Counted from the first letter of the stretch, positions 2,043 to 7,296 are shown. The stretch: DNA of 64,000 nucleotides from Sedimenticola thiotaurini (GCA_011051715.1 DRKP01000006.1:12729-76728), one strand, 5' to 3'. Notes: generated by a model not told the origin, from the letters alone. Program-made: numbers and translations.

Positions 2043-2594
2043 ATGAAGCTGTTTCGCGACCGCCGTCAGGATCGACTGCAGCAGCAGTTGGCGCAGCTGC
2101 GACCCCGGCTCTACCGCTCGGCGCTGGCCTGGTGCGGCAACCCCGAGCTGGCCGACGACCTGGTGCAGGAGGCCCTGTCGAAGGCGCTGCAGAAGATGAC
2201 CACCCTGAAGGAGACCTCCTCCCTCGACGCCTGGATCTTCTCGATCCTGGTCAACTGCCGCCGTGATCACTATCGCCGCTGCCGGCCCGAAGAGAGCTAC
2301 CGGGAGCAGGCCGACGAACGCCAGCCGACCGCGGACCAGGCCCTGCAGACGGAGCAGACGGTGGAACGGGTACGGGCATCGGTGCAGCGGCTCAGCGAGG
2401 GTCAGCGGGAGGTGCTGGCACTGGTGGACCTGGAGGGTTTCTCCTACGCCGAGGTCTCCGGCATCCTGCAGATCCCCATCGGCACCGTCATGAGTCGGCT
2501 CAACCGGGCCAGGAGCGCCCTCAGGCAGCAGCTGCTGGCAGCGAACGATGCCGCCCGGGGCACCCGGCGCGGCCACCTGGAGCGGGTCAAATGA
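2043..2594 (+). CDS. ECF-type RNA polymerase sigma-70 family factor
   Basis: Region 2 (LYRSALAWCGNPELADDLVQEAL, DAWIFSILVNCRRDHYR) and region 4 HTH (REVLALVDLEGFSYAEVSGILQIPIGTVMSRLNRAR). Confidence 0.9.
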   Translation: MKLFRDRRQDRLQQQLAQLRPRLYRSALAWCGNPELADDLVQEALSKALQKMTTLKETSSLDAWIFSILVNCRRDHYRRCRPEESYREQADERQPTADQALQTEQTVERVRASVQRLSEGQREVLALVDLEGFSYAEVSGILQIPIGTVMSRLNRARSALRQQLLAANDAARGTRRGHLERVK

Positions 2595-3325
2595 ATACCA
2601 TCACCCACTATTCCGACGAGATCATCAACGCCTTCGTGGACGGTGAACTGGCCGCCGCCGAGCGCCGCGAGCTGCTGGCTGCAGCTGCAGAGTCGGACCG
2701 GCTGCGGCAGCGCATCTGCGAGGCGGTGCAGTTGAAGGAGCTGGTGCGGGGGGCCTATCCCGCGCGGTCGCCGGAGGGGTTGGTAAAGGGGCGGAGCGGC
2801 CGCCGTGGCGCCCGGATGCGCCATGCGGCCGCCGCTGCGGTGGCGGTGCTGGCAGTCAGTGTGGCACTGCTGCTCCCGCGGCCGGAACCGGGGCAGCGGC
2901 TGGCGGACGGCGCCCTCTCCCCGGTGCTGCCGCTGAGTACCGGCGAGGAGGCGGGGGAGACGACCCGGGTGGTGTTCCATGTCAGCAGCGCCGATCCGGC
3001 CGCCGCCCGTGAACTGCTGGACCAGGTGGAGCTGGTGCTGCGTGAATACGCCGCCGGCAACCGGCCGCTGAAGGTGGAGGTGATCGCCAACAACGAGGGG
3101 CTGCGGCTGCTGCAGCAGGGCCGCTCCCCGGTGGCCGAGCGGATCCGCCGGCTCGACCAGCGCTACCAGAATCTGTTGTTCGCCGCCTGTGGCAATACCC
3201 TGGAACGGCTGCGCCGGGAGACCGGCGAGCAGATCCGGATCCTGCCCCAGGCGGTGATCGTGCAATCCGGAGTTTCGTTCGTGGCCCGGCGCCAGCAGGA
3301 GGGCTGGGCCTACATAAAAGTCTGA
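2591..3325 (+). CDS. Membrane anti-sigma factor with C-terminal DsrE/DsrF-like (COG1416-type) domain
   Basis: ATGA overlap with the sigma gene. N-terminal anti-sigma signature IINAFVDGELAAAERREL and one TM helix (HAAAAAVAVLAVSVALLL). The C-terminal ~130 aa are colinear with the next gene product and include the ACGNT Cys motif. Confidence 0.75.
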   Translation: MNTITHYSDEIINAFVDGELAAAERRELLAAAAESDRLRQRICEAVQLKELVRGAYPARSPEGLVKGRSGRRGARMRHAAAAAVAVLAVSVALLLPRPEPGQRLADGALSPVLPLSTGEEAGETTRVVFHVSSADPAAARELLDQVELVLREYAAGNRPLKVEVIANNEGLRLLQQGRSPVAERIRRLDQRYQNLLFAACGNTLERLRRETGEQIRILPQAVIVQSGVSFVARRQQEGWAYIKV

Positions 3326-3389
3326 GCCGGTTCGGGTGGTCCCTGCCCGGATCGAGCCCGGCGATTCACCAAAGCGAGGAGATGTGACG

Positions 3390-3833
3390 ATGAAGACGAT
3401 GAGACCCTATACCCCGTTCCTGTTGCTGTTGTCCCTGTTGCTGGCGGCGCCACTGGCCTTTGCCGGCAGCGACGACGGGCCGAAGCACAAGATCGTGATC
3501 CAGGTCAGCAGCGACGATGCCAGGACCCAGAAGATCGCCCTCAACAACGCGGTCAACCTGCAGAAGGCGCTGGGGCAGGACAATGTCGCCATCGAGATCG
3601 TCGCCTATGGCCCGGGGCTCTCCCTGCTGACCAGCAAGTCCCGCCAGGGCAAACGGGTGGAGAGCCTGGCGATGCAGGACATCACCTTCAGCGCCTGCGG
3701 CAACACCATGAAGAAGGTGGCGAGAAAGACCGGCAAGGAACCGCAGCTGCTGGAGGGCGTGCGGGTGGTCCAGGCCGGCGTGCTGCGGATCATGGAGCTG
3801 CAGGAGCAGGGCTACGCCTACGTGCGTCCGTAG
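3390..3833 (+). CDS. Secreted DsrE/DsrF-like family protein (COG1416-type)
   Basis: AGGAG RBS at 3377-3381 and ATG at 3390. Signal peptide MKTMRPYTPFLLLLSLLLAAPLAFAGS. Motifs KIVIQVSSDD, IEIVAYGPGL, FSACGNTMKK and QEQGYAYVRP. Confidence 0.8.
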   Translation: MKTMRPYTPFLLLLSLLLAAPLAFAGSDDGPKHKIVIQVSSDDARTQKIALNNAVNLQKALGQDNVAIEIVAYGPGLSLLTSKSRQGKRVESLAMQDITFSACGNTMKKVARKTGKEPQLLEGVRVVQAGVLRIMELQEQGYAYVRP

Positions 3834-4908: not shown

Positions 4909-6612
4909 ATGCCGCTAGAGACTTCTGAGCAGGAGAAAACGAGGGAGCAGAGACCGACGATGGCAGGAGAGGCCAGGGCCGTCAATTTCCGACGCAACGA
5001 ACTGGAGTCCCGATCGTTCCTGGTGGTGGACGACTTCGGCGACATGCGCAGCATGGTCAAGAACATGCTGCAGTCGATGGGCGTGCAGCAGATCGATCTG
5101 GCCAGAAACGGCGTCGAGGCGATCCGGGCGATCGAGAACCCCGACAACCACTACCAGGTGATCCTGTGCGACTACAACCTGGGACCGGGCAAGAATGGCC
5201 AGCAGATCCTGGAGGAGGTGCGCCACCGGGAACTGATCGGCGTGGGCACGGTGTTCGTGATGATCACCGCCGAGAATACCTTCGAGATGGTGATGGGCGC
5301 GGTCGAGTACGAGCCGGACTCCTACATGACCAAACCGTTCACCAAGGATCTGCTGCGCAGCCGGCTGGAGAAGCTGATTGCGCGCAAGAAGGACCTGGAA
5401 GACGTGGAGCGGGCGATGACCAGGCGCGATTTCGAGGGCGCCATCCGGCTGCTCGACGCCAAGATCGGGACGCGCCCCCGCAATCTGGCCCAGCTCAACA
5501 AGCTGAAGGGCGAGCTGGCCCTGCGCGCCGGCGATCATGAGCGGGCGGAGCAGGTCTACCGGGAGGTGCTGGAGGGGCGGGATCTGCCCTGGGCGCGGCT
5601 GGGGCTGGGCAAGGTGTATTACGCCAGCGGTCGCTACCAGGAGGCGCAGGCACTGTTCCAGCAGTTGCTGGAGCAGAATCCCCGGCTGACGGCCGCCTAC
5701 GACTGGCTGGCCCGCACCCAGCAGGCCCTGGATGCGTTGCCGGCGGCCCAGCAGACCCTGGAACAGGCGGTGTCGCTGTCGCCGAAGGCGATCCTGCGGC
5801 AACGCGCCCTGGGCGAACTGGCGCTGAAGAACGACGACCTGGAGGTGGCGGAGAGGGCCTTTGCCGAGGCGGTCAGCCTGGGACGCCATTCGGTCTACAA
5901 GACCCCCCGGACCTATGCCGATCTGGCGCGGATCAGGGTCCGTACCCGGGGGGCGAAGGAGGCGCGCAAGGTGCTGCAGGGGCTGCAGCGCGAATTTCCC
6001 GGTGATACCGAGGCCAGTCTGCACGCGGCGATGGCCGACAGCGCCATCGCCATGGCGCAGGGAGACGAGGCGACCGCCCGGGCCCGACTGGCCGAGGCGA
6101 GGGCCCTGTACCGGGGGATGGGCGATGATGCGGGGGCCGAGCTGACGCTGGAACTGGCCCGTACCTGCGGTGCCCTGGGTGAGACCGAGCGGGCCAAGGA
6201 ACTGCTGCAGCAGGCGGTGCGCAACAATCACGCGGAAGAGGCGTTTCTGCGCGAGGTGGGGAGCGCGCTCGGCGATCTCGGCCTCGGCATCGATCCGGAA
6301 GCGTTCATCTCCGACATCCGCCGCGAGATCATCCGGCTCAACAACGAGGGGGTGCAACTGGCCCGTGCCGGCCGGCTGGATCAGGCGGTGGGCCTGTTCG
6401 AGGAGGCGGTCAAGCGGATGCCGGGCAACAAGGTGGTGAACCTGAACACCGCCCGGGTCCTGATCATGTACATGAAGCGGCACGGCCCGGACGAGGAGAA
6501 CCTGCGACGGGTGCGGGAGCTGCTGGCGCGGGTAAAGGGCCTGGATCCGGAGAGCCAGAGCCTGCGCAAGGTCCATGGCATGTTGCGGGAGCTGCTGGAG
6601 TCGGCCGCCTGA
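4909..6612 (+). CDS. Response regulator (REC domain) fused to a long TPR-repeat domain
   Basis: REC motifs FLVVDDFGDMR, ILCDYNLGPGKNG and MITAE..YMTKP, followed by about 400 aa of TPR-like repeats (YYASGRYQEAQALFQQLLEQNP etc.). An alternative ATG lies at 4960. Confidence 0.85.
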   Translation: MPLETSEQEKTREQRPTMAGEARAVNFRRNELESRSFLVVDDFGDMRSMVKNMLQSMGVQQIDLARNGVEAIRAIENPDNHYQVILCDYNLGPGKNGQQILEEVRHRELIGVGTVFVMITAENTFEMVMGAVEYEPDSYMTKPFTKDLLRSRLEKLIARKKDLEDVERAMTRRDFEGAIRLLDAKIGTRPRNLAQLNKLKGELALRAGDHERAEQVYREVLEGRDLPWARLGLGKVYYASGRYQEAQALFQQLLEQNPRLTAAYDWLARTQQALDALPAAQQTLEQAVSLSPKAILRQRALGELALKNDDLEVAERAFAEAVSLGRHSVYKTPRTYADLARIRVRTRGAKEARKVLQGLQREFPGDTEASLHAAMADSAIAMAQGDEATARARLAEARALYRGMGDDAGAELTLELARTCGALGETERAKELLQQAVRNNHAEEAFLREVGSALGDLGLGIDPEAFISDIRREIIRLNNEGVQLARAGRLDQAVGLFEEAVKRMPGNKVVNLNTARVLIMYMKRHGPDEENLRRVRELLARVKGLDPESQSLRKVHGMLRELLESAA

Positions 6613-6627
6613 GCCGGGATCCGAGTC

Positions 6628-7296
6628 ATGCAGTTTGCCGATATCCTCGCTTCCCTCATCCACGACATGAAGAACTCCCTCGGGATGGTGATCAATACCC
6701 TGGAGGAGCTGACCGGTGATGCCGTCGACGGCGACCGGAGCCGCGCCAGGATGGTGGCCCTGCAACACGAGGCGAAGCGCCTGAACAGCAACCTGATCGA
6801 ACTGCTCACCCTGTACAAGATCGAGAACGACCGCATCAGCGCCAACATCGAGCAGGTCAATGTGGATGAATTCCTGGAAGAGGTGGTGCTGGACAACCGC
6901 GCGGTGGCCCACAGCCGCGATATCGAGCTCACCTGGGTCTGTGATCCGGATCTGGACGGCTACTTCGACGAAGGGCTGGTGCGGGGGGTCCTCAACAACC
7001 TGATCGGCAACGGACTGCGCTATACCCGGAGGCGGCTCGAGGTGCATGGCGAGCAGCAGGGAGATTACCTGGTGTTGTCGGTGCAGGACGATGGCGACGG
7101 CTTCCCGGAGGCCATGCTCGAGGCCCAGGACCACCCGGCCGCCGCGATGGACGGGGGCAGCGGCCGCACCCACCTGGGCATCTATTTCTCCCGCCTGGTT
7201 GCCGGGCTGCACCGGGAAGGCGACCGTCGCGGCTACATCCGGCTCGAAAACGGCGGCTCCCTCGGGGGCGGCTGCTTCTCGCTCCACCTGCCCTGA
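6628..7296 (+). CDS. Soluble histidine kinase (HisKA + HATPase_c only, no TM or sensor domain)
   Basis: H-box LIHDMKNSL, N-box NLIGNGLRYT, G1 VQDDGDGFPE and G2 GSGRTHLGIYF. Confidence 0.8.
   Translation: MQFADILASLIHDMKNSLGMVINTLEELTGDAVDGDRSRARMVALQHEAKRLNSNLIELLTLYKIENDRISANIEQVNVDEFLEEVVLDNRAVAHSRDIELTWVCDPDLDGYFDEGLVRGVLNNLIGNGLRYTRRRLEVHGEQQGDYLVLSVQDDGDGFPEAMLEAQDHPAAAMDGGSGRTHLGIYFSRLVAGLHREGDRRGYIRLENGGSLGGGCFSLHLP

Follow-up and report, generated by a model that had tools for sequence, protein, structure and literature searches.

Sulfur-responsive ECF sigma factors have a precedent in the ECF26 RpoE1/RpoE4 pairs of S. meliloti, which respond to sulfite made from thiosulfate or taurine and whose targets are the sulfite dehydrogenase SorT, its cytochrome and a pseudoazurin (PMC3511301). 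The main text of a further source (PMC7826278) mentions neither DsrE nor sulfur. Periplasmic sulfur sensing by sulfur oxidisers, including the symbionts of lucinid clams, is poorly understood. In BlaR1 and MecR1, the sensor domain is homologous to the effector that is induced. In the literature searched, no paper described a three-gene module of sigma factor and DsrE-like proteins, a protein of the MTH1491 subgroup with a demonstrated sulfur-binding function or, just as the earlier note had supposed, an anti-sigma factor of DsrE-like fold.

The locus studied here lies in a 64-kb stretch of DNA, of which the whole is called the window, and consists of three ORFs at 2043-2594 (183 aa), 2591-3325 (244 aa) and 3336/3390-3833. 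This trio encodes an ECF sigma factor, a single-pass protein that bears an extracytoplasmic DsrE-like domain of the MTH1491 type, and a secreted paralogue of that domain. The earlier note had reported that the first two genes overlap by ATGA, and this was borne out together with all of its coordinates and features: read directly in the sequence, the ATGA at 2591-2594 is both the sigma stop and the start of the 244-aa gene. In the same way, the ATGA at 1439-1442 joins the two genes further upstream. For the secreted protein, the start at ATG 3390 was favoured over GTG 3336, because AGGAG is found 8 nt upstream and CCAAAG(A/C)GAGGA is conserved upstream in the homologues. The features are as follows:

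801-1442, + strand: MBL-fold hydrolase, GloB-like (Pfam Lactamase_B, 125.6 bits)
1439-1915, + strand: hemerythrin-domain protein (Pfam Hemerythrin, 42.6 bits)
1973-1999, + strand: ECF-type promoter motif GGAATAAA-N14-CGTCT (GGAATAAAGCAGCGGGTCGCCGCGTCT) (motif search, conserved across loci)
2043-2594, + strand: ECF (group IV) sigma-70 family sigma factor, 183 aa (Pfam, TIGR02937)
2591-2755, + strand: cytoplasmic three-helix module, residues 1-55 of the 244-aa protein, putative anti-sigma domain without zinc motif (AlphaFold2, weak zf-HC2)
2807-2878, + strand: single predicted transmembrane helix, residues ~73-96 (AlphaFold2 helix 73-94, hydropathy)
2963-3325, + strand: extracytoplasmic MTH1491/COG1416-type DsrE-like sensor domain, residues 125-244 (phmmer, Foldseek)
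3390-3833, + strand: secreted free DsrE-like paralogue, 147 aa (BLASTP, 1L1S, Pfam DsrE)

Sigma factor, promoter and conserved target

The 183-aa protein carries the Pfam domains Sigma70_r2 (residues 18-79, 47.6 bits) and Sigma70_r4_2 (residues 109-160, 53.4 bits) and scored 82.3 bits against the TIGR02937 sigma70-ECF model (cutoff 42.9). It thus has the make-up of an ECF sigma factor, with sigma-2 and sigma-4 domains only in approximately 180 aa, a co-transcribed inhibitor gene (ATGA) and AAC/AAT-type -35 and CGT-type -10 elements. None of the NCBIfam equivalog models exceeded its own cutoff for this protein, and the nearest solved relative was SigH of M. tuberculosis (E=1e-21).

The promoter motif ends 44 nt 5' of the sigma ATG. 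It was the sole match within the 64-kb window, where 0.01 were expected, and it was still the sole match with a relaxed pattern. Across loci, the general form is GGAATAAA-N13/14-CGTCT, which was recognised by eye in 17 of the 19 regions preceding a sigma gene; the exact pattern matched in 16 loci and also in L089. The motif at 1973-1999 is presumed to be the operon's autoregulatory promoter, and the sigma factor encoded at 2043-2594 would be the one that recognises GGAATAAA-N14-CGTCT.

The three genes are co-directional in L001 and L004-L020. In L002/L003, L086, L088, L090 and L091, the free DsrE-like gene is divergent, which amounts to five independent architectures in Gamma- and Betaproteobacteria, and in every one of these loci a second copy of the motif faces the free gene. 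Since the free gene has its own promoter copy there, it is a conserved target within the regulon and, as far as motif placement tells, appears to be the module's conserved output. The regulon may be larger, because the scan covered approximately 10 kb per locus and the one 64-kb window.

The earlier note had suggested that the MBL hydrolase and hemerythrin genes may belong to the same redox/sulfur stress locus, which was not supported in that form. Both lie upstream of the ECF promoter and are seldom conserved, and they were ruled out as core parts of the module. Only L005, L007, L009, L011 and L015 carry an MBL gene upstream (5 of ~18 co-directional loci), and L009 alone has a detectable homologue of the hemerythrin encoded in the window. 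At the hemerythrin position, L011 and L015 have a third secreted DsrE-like gene.

The membrane protein and its secreted paralogue

According to the earlier note, the 244-aa protein has one transmembrane helix behind a normal N-terminal anti-sigma segment. The helix was confirmed, the segment proved weaker than claimed: the match to zf-HC2 (PF13490) was sub-threshold (17.9 bits, E=0.0034; cutoff 22.2 bits), and the protein lacks the His-x3-Cys-x2-Cys zinc motif, its residues 1-60 having one Cys that is not invariant. In the family, zf-HC2 was matched at E<=0.01 by 5 of 25 members, and a family profile of the module reached the RseA/MucA N-domains at E ~0.08. AlphaFold2 modelled three helices (9-16, 22-34 and 36-55) with a pLDDT of ~95. 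The module bears a NAFVDGEL motif, where the weak zf-HC2 match falls, and D17 and K49 are invariant among 25 homologues. If it is an anti-sigma domain, it is by its sequence of a non-zinc kind. Two other matches were set aside: helical phage phi29 scaffolding-protein chimeras, the top PDB matches of the N-terminal profile (E ~0.04-0.1), were treated as compositional noise, and a type III YscP match (18.9 bits vs a cutoff of 76.5), the only one that Pfam and NCBIfam gave for the sensor domain, was dismissed as spurious.

The only hydrophobic segment of the protein has its hydropathy peak at residues 78-96 (mean Kyte-Doolittle 2.15). It is preceded by six K/R in 15 residues and followed by two, and this N-terminal-side bias recurs in 22 of 25 family members. 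Topology prediction, proposed as a check in the earlier note, gave an N-in/C-out orientation, with the sensor domain predicted to be exposed to the periplasm. By prediction, the protein therefore has the class I anti-sigma layout of N-terminal helical bundle, one transmembrane helix and N-in/C-out topology. The N-terminal module would bind the sigma factor, and the 244-aa protein is probably its anti-sigma factor, an assignment made mainly from context.

The MTH1491/COG1416 fold named in the earlier note was recovered for both copies, which match PDB 1L1S by sequence, and the model of the fusion superposes as well. For the sensor domain, phmmer aligned residues 126-243 with 1L1S (MTH1491) at E=2.7e-9. 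Its AlphaFold2 model (pLDDT ~95) gave Foldseek TM-scores, each normalised to target, of 0.87 to 1L1S, 0.85 to 2PD2 (ST0148) and 0.61 to the DsrE of DsrEFH (2HY5_A, E=1.4e-3); chains A, B and C of 2HY5 all match the model of the 244-aa protein. The free copy matched 1L1S at E=3.2e-14, or 2.6e-22 with a family profile. The Pfam DsrE model (PF02635), another check the earlier note had named, gave a divided answer. It did not match the sensor domain and matched just 1 of 25 family members; the free copy stayed slightly below the cutoff (22.4 vs 22.7 bits), which its orthologues in L001 (26.3 bits) and L004 (30.9 bits) surpassed, and a relative from Bacteroidota scored 35.2 bits.

Ten residues are invariant in 25 homologues of the fusion (H130, A166, N167, G170, A199, C200, R234, G238, W239 and Y241), and the 24 members with a correctly placed transmembrane segment have exactly one Cys after it. 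In the AlphaFold2 model, C200 (codon 3188-3190) is the last residue of strand 195-200 and is followed by helix 201-211, and H130, N167 and C200 are situated at or just past the ends of strands 125-131, 160-166 and 195-200. This Cys aligns with those of MTH1491 (FCACSNT) and ST0148. The earlier note was right that both copies keep the Cys of ACGNT, as it is invariant in 25 fusions and, as Cys103 of the free copy (codon 3696-3698), in 15 free proteins. The sensor Cys may take part in signalling.

BLASTP aligned residues 118-243 of the 244-aa protein with residues 26-146 of the free copy, and with 39/126 identities (31%, E=5e-18) the paralogy is far beyond chance; the alignment includes all four motif pairs that the earlier note had quoted. 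The free copy begins with a signal peptide (residues 1-25, 3390-3464) that ends between LAFA and GSDD, and all 15 aligned free homologues start with a hydrophobic stretch and have only one Cys in the mature protein. Sensor and free copies fall into separate clades, with signatures FH / ANN / RRQxxGWxYIK for the sensors and IQVS / AYGPG / ELQEQGYAYVRP for the free proteins. A recent tandem duplication as origin of the pair was therefore ruled out, and by their sequences the two are separate subfamilies and not recent duplicates.

Family, neighbourhood and competing readings

An exhaustive profile search put the fusion family at approximately 515 representatives of 50%-identity clusters, compared with which the 65 clusters from a word-indexed protein search were a large underestimate. 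The genome scan for related loci used two narrow peptide patterns and hence under-sampled the family. In the synteny check suggested in the earlier note, the trio of sigma, fusion and free gene was present in every related locus examined. The family extends to Betaproteobacteria as well as Gammaproteobacteria, with Sedimenticola, Ca. Thiodiazotropha, Sulfuritalea, Denitratisoma and unclassified Rhodocyclaceae, Chromatiales and Thiotrichales MAGs as hosts. Sedimenticola, Ca. Thiodiazotropha and Sulfuritalea are sulfur oxidisers.

The three-gene operon itself includes no sox, dsr or sulfite-oxidation genes. Stand-alone secreted relatives were surveyed in 53 loci of other phyla. Here, an OprD-like porin adjoins in 34 loci, a rhodanese in 29, a SoxA/TsdA-type cytochrome in 26 and TauE in 9, YeeE/YedE-type proteins form two clusters (21 and 17 loci), and a SoxB-like Tat protein adjoins in 32 of the 53 (TIGR04486, 242 bits, below cutoff). 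A cytoplasmic DsrE-like protein of the YTD cluster in Desulfobulbales was set aside as a different system.

On balance, we regard it as somewhat probable that the locus is a three-gene envelope signalling module, in which the membrane DsrE-like sensor controls the ECF sigma factor and the secreted DsrE-like protein is the output. The 244-aa single-pass protein would hold the sigma factor at the inner membrane, its N-terminal module in the cytoplasm and its DsrE-like domain in the periplasm. A periplasmic cue would act on the sensor domain, likely at a pocket of the invariant His130, Asn167 and single Cys200 at the C-terminal ends of strands 1-3. The fold family and the sulfur-oxidation neighbourhoods of the stand-alone relatives make a sulfur compound a plausible signal, and the cue would most likely be a reactive sulfur species such as polysulfide or persulfide sulfur, thiosulfate or sulfite. 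It may inactivate the inhibitor by conformational change or regulated proteolysis, which would be the way the sigma factor is released. Once free, the sigma factor would transcribe from GGAATAAA-N13/14-CGTCT promoters its own operon and the gene of the secreted single-Cys DsrE-like protein, and in some lineages possibly also a second DsrE-like protein or an anion-type porin. The secreted protein might bind or carry the same species in the periplasm, lower the signal and so close a negative feedback.

A bolder form of this mechanism, which we offer tentatively, is that the tethered and the secreted domains exchange sulfane sulfur or co-assemble, and that the sigma factor responds to how fully a periplasmic pool of sulfur carriers is loaded. 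In a related reading that we consider unlikely, the sensor does not read a small molecule at all but the secreted DsrE-like protein, through mixed oligomers or Cys-to-Cys sulfur exchange; with the same low expectation, the anti-sigma factor would report how much of the periplasmic carrier is present or how far it is loaded, in a manner resembling the modulation of RseA by RseB. Sensor and output of one fold are co-inherited in every locus, in both Gamma- and Betaproteobacteria, and paralogous subunits make up the hetero-oligomers DsrEFH and TusBCD. One close match in structure, ST0148 (2PD2), is a building block of the designed T33 cage 8UJA; T33 cages are assembled from trimers, and MTH1491 too is used as a trimeric scaffold. 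Moreover, the free copy, which adjoins the sigma/anti-sigma pair in all loci of the module, is the best conserved of the three proteins among Sedimenticola-like loci (67-75% identity, compared with 58-68% for the sensor and ~50% for the sigma factor). However, the separate clades have different signature residues, and a common oligomer interface is therefore not evident; the sensor is paired with differing free subtypes by locus (e.g. L018/L019 and L090), and close homologues of the free protein in L085 and L087 come without a sigma/anti-sigma pair. If the sigma factor does respond to such a carrier pool, as in the bolder form above, the module would represent a signalling family not recognised before and widely spread among sulfur oxidisers of the Beta- and Gammaproteobacteria, animal symbionts among them. 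The MTH1491/COG1416 family, with a structure known since 2002, would thereby gain its first function, as would its secreted members in Bacteroidota clusters with a SoxB-like gene.

The signal might instead be an oxidant, a lone periplasmic Cys being oxidised by H2O2, hypochlorite/chlorite or nitrosative stress, although we give this little credence, and as little to the corollary that the induced secreted protein is a sacrificial or redox-buffering thiol protein. No reactive group is obvious other than the single invariant Cys, and several Sedimenticola respire (per)chlorate or selenate and are exposed to reactive chlorine. In the window and, differently arranged, in the unrelated locus L086, the module has hemerythrin and MBL genes at its side, and the orphan copy in L085 adjoins an AhpC/TSA peroxiredoxin; these neighbours fit an oxidant signal equally well. 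Yet the hemerythrin and MBL of L086, the latter a different one, are not detectably orthologous to those of the window, and the association fades across the co-directional loci, as counted above. The strongest recurrent neighbours in the wider family are sulfur-oxidation genes, sulfur-transport genes and porins, and TauE adjoins the betaproteobacterial module loci. Least credible to us is that the 244-aa protein is a mere membrane-anchored DsrE-like protein and that the ECF sigma factor is controlled otherwise. The sub-threshold anti-sigma matches and the lack of a zinc motif would agree with this, as would the database records, mostly named 'hypothetical' or 'DsrE family protein'; against it, one depositor labelled the homologue P0434 a 'transmembrane anti-sigma factor'. 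The start/stop overlap of sigma and fusion genes is shared by the window and the loci with called genes, no locus offers an alternative anti-sigma candidate, and the first 55 residues are a conserved, confidently modelled three-helix bundle with a NAFVDGEL-type motif, a cytoplasmic domain without an obvious role in a plain anchor.

With the signalling module as the preferred reading, the DsrE-like fold would join the list of anti-sigma sensor domains, and the module would open a first approach to the function of the MTH1491/COG1416 branch within the DsrE superfamily. It also points to systematic misnaming, as predicted extracytoplasmic sensors and carriers are filed as 'intracellular sulfur oxidation DsrE/DsrF family protein' or 'hypothetical'. 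Having a single promoter motif, a single Cys in the sensor and a single output that is conserved, it is a compact test system, and the distinctive promoter and small regulon could serve synthetic biology as an orthogonal, possibly sulfur-responsive switch.

Comparison with known systems

In its general plan, the module resembles RpoE/RseA/RseB, with a two-domain ECF sigma factor that is translationally coupled and co-transcribed with a single-pass N-in/C-out inhibitor, an autoregulated promoter and a soluble periplasmic protein from the same unit. It differs in that the periplasmic domain is a DsrE-like alpha/beta domain instead of an RseA-type segment, a paralogue of the sensor serves as soluble partner and is apparently the main output, and the N-terminal domain comes no closer to RseA/MucA than the marginal profile match given above. 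With the ECF26 RpoE1/RpoE4 systems it would share a very small regulon of periplasmic sulfur-handling proteins, whereas their anti-sigma factors are COG5662-type without a DsrE-like domain and their hosts are Alphaproteobacteria (PMC3511301). No SorT/SorAB genes were found in any module locus examined. In logic, the module may be likened to BlaR1/MecR1, as an extracytoplasmic sensor that is a paralogue of the induced protein suggests one ligand for both; this is an analogy without homology, with entirely different folds and transduction, between a penicillin-binding domain with a zinc protease on one side and a DsrE-like domain with an anti-sigma module on the other.

DsrEFH and TusBCD share the distant fold, the principle of paralogous subunits working together, and a single Cys after a beta-strand at a helix N-terminus, which is a likeness of placement and not a residue-by-residue alignment. 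However, they are cytoplasmic heterohexamers that hand sulfur to DsrC/TusE, in contrast to the predicted periplasmic proteins described here, and the module loci examined had neither F/H-type partners nor DsrC/TusE genes. Only the orthologues of the free copy attain the Pfam DsrE threshold, and the sensor and free proteins are not to be filed as DsrE proper. The nearest relatives are MTH1491 (1L1S) and ST0148 (2PD2) of COG1416, which agree in fold, length, conserved Cys and the C-terminal G-W/Y-x-Y motif. These archaeal proteins stand alone, without signal peptide and without known function, whereas the present module has a secreted copy and a second one that forms part of a signalling protein in the membrane.

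Gene coupling and the putative anti-sigma factor

The module opens with an ECF sigma gene, whose product contains Sigma70_r2 and Sigma70_r4_2 and passes the TIGR02937 ECF superfamily model with 82.3 bits (cutoff 42.9). It is followed by a gene for a fusion protein, a predicted single-pass membrane protein with a DsrE-like sensor domain at its C-terminus, and by a gene for a free, secreted DsrE-like paralogue.

Features of the module (window coordinates, forward strand; genes from the ORF list)
1973-1999: ECF-type promoter motif shared by sigma-gene upstream regions, ending 44 nt before the sigma ATG
2043-2594: ECF sigma gene, 183 aa
2591-3325: fusion gene, 244 aa
3336 (GTG) or 3390 (ATG) to 3833: free DsrE-like gene, two possible starts

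The ATGA overlap of the first two genes, reported in the earlier note, was read in the sequence at 2589-2595 (aATGAat), where the fusion ATG overlaps the sigma TGA; homologous loci with called genes show this start/stop overlap as well. For the free copy, ATG 3390 is the likely start, because AGGAG is found 8 nt upstream and the upstream element CCAAAG(A/C)GAGGA is kept in homologous loci.

The N-terminus of the fusion had been described as a normal anti-sigma segment, which holds only in part. The zf-HC2 match (residues 10-37) reached 17.9 bits and thus stayed below the cutoff of 22.2; at E<=0.01, zf-HC2 was detected in no more than 5 of the 25 family members. The module lacks the His-x3-Cys-x2-Cys zinc motif, D17 and K49 are its only invariant residues, and a family profile of residues 1-60 retrieved the RseA and MucA N-domains at E ~0.08, amid helical noise. 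What stood was a conserved three-helix module, modelled confidently by AlphaFold2 and bearing a NAFVDGEL-type motif. Taken together with the recurrent gene overlap, the lack of another anti-sigma candidate in any locus compared, and the label 'transmembrane anti-sigma factor' given to a homologue by one depositor, this module very probably marks the fusion as an anti-sigma factor, and this putative assignment is the weakest link of our reading.

The single transmembrane helix proposed earlier agrees with the one hydrophobic segment of the protein (mean hydropathy 2.15 over residues 78-96). The 15 residues before this segment include six K/R and two more follow it, a bias shared by 22 of 25 homologues. 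From the single segment and this bias, an N-in/C-out orientation is predicted, which would place the DsrE-like domain outside the cytoplasm. The N-terminus of the free copy, MKTMRPYTPFLLLLSLLLAAPLAFA/GSDD, is a typical Sec signal peptide, and all aligned free-copy homologues have a comparable hydrophobic N-terminus. Four homologous database proteins of 267-303 aa (P0225, P0243, P0246 and P0265) are 25-60 residues longer and were matched by the profile in two stretches, which suggests that the part joining their transmembrane helix to the DsrE-like domain may be a longer linker or include an additional element.

Fold and ancestry of the two DsrE-like copies

The paralogy of the fusion C-terminus and the free copy was borne out by BLASTP (31% identity over 126 residues, E=5e-18). 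The alignment runs from residue 118 of the fusion to its C-terminus, and from just past the signal peptide of the free copy to its C-terminus, and includes all motif pairs quoted in the earlier note. By sequence alone, 1L1S (MTH1491) was matched by the fusion at E=2.7e-9 and by the free copy at E=3.2e-14, and both matched 2PD2 (ST0148) more weakly. The AlphaFold2 model of the fusion, built on 25 homologues (mean pLDDT 85), consists of three N-terminal helices (9-55), a disordered stretch, a long helix (73-94), a disordered linker (95-124) and an alpha/beta domain (125-243) with a pLDDT of ~95. Foldseek superposed this domain on 1L1S and 2PD2 with TM-scores of 0.87 and 0.85 (normalised to the target), and DsrE of DsrEFH (2HY5_A) was a distant match (0.61, E=1.4e-3). 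On these sequence matches and superpositions, the assignment to the MTH1491/COG1416 subgroup of the DsrE-like superfamily is correct. The Pfam DsrE model itself did not match the sensor domain, and the free copy scored 22.4 bits, just below the threshold of 22.7.

Ten residues of the sensor domain are invariant in 25 diverse members (H130, A166, N167, G170, A199, C200, R234, G238, W239 and Y241), and exactly one Cys is present in each extracytoplasmic sensor domain and in each mature free paralogue of the aligned homologues. In the AlphaFold2 model, strand 1 has H130 as its last residue but one, N167 comes immediately after strand 2, and C200 is the final residue of strand 3, just ahead of a helix; all three are located on the C-terminal edge of the parallel sheet, which would correspond to the usual ligand site of such folds.

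In a neighbour-joining tree, all sensor domains fall into one clade and the co-located free copies into another, with orphan copies among the latter, and the Thiodiazotropha and Thiotrichales free copies constitute a third type. The signatures of the sensors are MTH1491-like (V-F-H and R-R-Q-x-x-G-W-x-Y-I-K), and those of the free copies are I-Q-V-S and E-L-Q-E-Q-G-Y-A-Y-V-R-P. By these clades and signatures, the pair goes back to an old association of two subfamilies and did not arise by recent tandem duplication.

Shared promoter, distribution and neighbouring genes

The upstream regions of the sigma genes have TGGAATAAA-N13/14-CGTCT(T/A)A in common. This ECF-type promoter motif gave a single match in the 64-kb window (0.01 expected), and a relaxed pattern, with one -35 mismatch allowed and CGTC[TA] as -10, still returned only the copy at 1973-1999. 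A sigma-70-type consensus promoter was not found between 700 and 5000 of the window. Thirteen loci have one copy of the motif each, upstream of sigma, and it was found again in L089. The free DsrE-like gene is divergent from the sigma gene in five independent architectures (L002/L003, with a fusion of 27% identity, L086, L088, L090 of Denitratisoma and L091 of Sulfuritalea), and the intergenic region of all five contains two motif copies, one per direction. With the second copy facing the free gene, these loci are direct comparative evidence for its predicted place in the sigma factor's regulon, in which it appears to be the only target conserved throughout. A porin gene (Porin_4 or Porin_O_P) comes after the free gene in L002 and L088, and a second DsrE-like gene in L090. 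At the three Sedimenticola hydrogenitrophicus loci (L001:6720-6963, L010 and L016), the fusion-to-free intergenic region measures ~240 nt, compared with 64 nt in the window, and includes a strong inverted repeat, GCCCCAGGCGAAGCATAGTCGGACTATGTGATGCCTGGGGC, a possible attenuator, processing site or repeat element that would decouple fusion and free-copy expression.

A 'hypothetical protein' from a Sedimenticola thiotaurini MAG has exactly the sequence of the window fusion. When species-representative genomes were scanned, the full-length fusion turned up in S. thiotaurini, S. selenatireducens, S. hydrogenitrophicus, other Sedimenticolaceae and Ca. Thiodiazotropha, as well as in Chromatiales and Thiotrichales MAGs. 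When the window proteins were searched by tblastn, the order sigma, fusion, free DsrE-like gene was recovered in every long-enough locus among L001 and L004-L020, and synteny of the trio in related loci was thereby confirmed. An exhaustive profile search returned 515 representatives of 50%-identity clusters at E<=1e-30, far above the indexed search; the best 150 of the 515 are nearly all full-length two-domain proteins (228-263 aa), and named members include Rhodocyclaceae, Denitratisoma, Sulfuritalea and Burkholderiales MAGs. Fusion records are labelled 'hypothetical', 'DsrE family protein' or, by JGI, 'intracellular sulfur oxidation DsrE/DsrF family protein'. This last JGI/IMG name, carried by the fusions P0037, P0040, P0050, P0188, P0300 and P0315, appears to be a systematic misannotation, in which the N-terminal signalling module is ignored and a domain predicted to be extracytoplasmic is called intracellular.

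The genes for an MBL hydrolase (801-1442; GloB-like, 213 aa) and a hemerythrin (1439-1915), which the earlier note had tentatively added to the locus, both lie upstream of the ECF promoter. By tblastn, MBL was found in the same position only in L005, L007, L009, L011 and L015, and a homologue of the window hemerythrin only in L009. Based on this position and the poor recurrence, we regard both as neighbours in one lineage and not as module parts. Two Sedimenticolaceae loci (L011:3859-4335 and L015:3835-4329) have a third signal-peptide DsrE-like gene between MBL and sigma, where the window has its hemerythrin. In the gammaproteobacterial locus L086:1060-4810 (minus strand), three more genes come after sigma and fusion in the same orientation, for an Ion_trans channel, a hemerythrin and an MBL/ODP-like protein of 320 aa; the latter two have no detectable orthology to the window's pair, and their recurrence could be functional or coincidental. 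Of the loci with a fusion, the most divergent is L002:6953-12720; here a lipoprotein-like ORF of 249 aa without family assignment comes after the fusion gene and then, on the opposite strand, genes for a multihaem cytochrome of 1051 aa, an NHL-repeat protein and a further cytochrome. Further along the window, 4909-7296 encodes a 567-aa protein with a response-regulator receiver and many TPR repeats, and a 222-aa HATPase_c-only protein (histidine-kinase catalytic domain) in which Pfam detected neither a sensor nor a HisKA/DHp domain; L005 likewise has the receiver-TPR gene (57% identity), on the far side of an EamA gene. Free-copy homologues of ~70% identity also occur without the sigma/anti-sigma pair: in L085 the neighbour is a peroxiredoxin, and in L087 the homologue is flanked by metH on one side and a sulfate/thiosulfate-type binding protein on the other.

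Candidate signal and comparison with known systems

DsrE and TusD, both sulfur-relay proteins, belong to the DsrE-like fold family, and the conserved Cys of this fold is kept in the module proteins. Several hosts of the module are sulfur oxidisers, among them Sedimenticola, Ca. Thiodiazotropha and Sulfuritalea. Neighbour clustering around 53 secreted relatives that stand alone, drawn from Bacteroidota and other phyla, revealed an OprD-like porin at 34 of the 53 loci (median 30 bp away), a Tat-signal SoxB-like metallophosphoesterase at 32 (TIGR04486 242 bits, below the cutoff of 550), a rhodanese at 29, a SoxA/TsdA-type cytochrome c at 26, split YeeE/YedE-type 'sulphur transport' proteins in two clusters (21 and 17 loci), a Crp-family regulator at 10 and TauE at 9; TauE also flanks betaproteobacterial modules. 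The recurrent grouping around stand-alone secreted MTH1491-type proteins in Bacteroidota, Verrucomicrobiota and other phyla resembles a periplasmic cluster for thiosulfate or sulfur oxidation that has so far gone undescribed, and no paper on such a SoxB-like/porin/DsrE-like cluster was found in the literature searched.

Examples of the stand-alone cluster (from loci L021-L084)
L028:2106-3800
L038:2291-3712
L071:2030-3121
L052:4938-5375

A sulfur-responsive precedent exists in the ECF26 sigmas RpoE1 and RpoE4 of S. meliloti, which differ from the present system in having anti-sigma factors of the COG5662 type and a sulfite dehydrogenase as target (PMC3511301). In the lucinid symbiont Ca. Thiodiazotropha endolucinida, a 'DsrE/DsrF/DrsH-like family' gene (peg.581) ranks among the 100 most highly expressed genes (PMC13137333, Table 1). 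An oxidant acting on the lone sensor Cys is a reasonable alternative cue; fold family, retained Cys, hosts, relatives' neighbours and the ECF26 precedent make sulfur the leading candidate.

We infer that the N-terminal module of the membrane fusion would bind and sequester the sigma factor, and that a periplasmic cue, most likely a reactive sulfur species, would modify or bind the sensor at the His130/Asn167/Cys200 site. The fusion inhibitor would then be inactivated, and the released sigma factor would transcribe its own operon and the secreted DsrE-like protein, in some lineages also a porin or a second carrier. By handling the same species as the sensor, the secreted protein would provide negative feedback. 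In an attractive variant, the sensor would read the free protein itself, via co-assembly or Cys-to-Cys sulfur transfer; the solved relatives are oligomeric, and DsrEFH and TusBCD are built from paralogues.

Neither a description of an ECF sigma/DsrE-like anti-sigma architecture nor a functional study of the MTH1491 subgroup was found in the literature searched. DsrE and sulfur are both absent from the main text of the ECF reclassification paper, and as this applies to the main text, the sigma factor could already belong to a numbered but undescribed ECF group. The ECF sigma/anti-sigma switch is a known kind of system; new are the undescribed sensor fold and an unusual design that makes sensor and output paralogues of each other.
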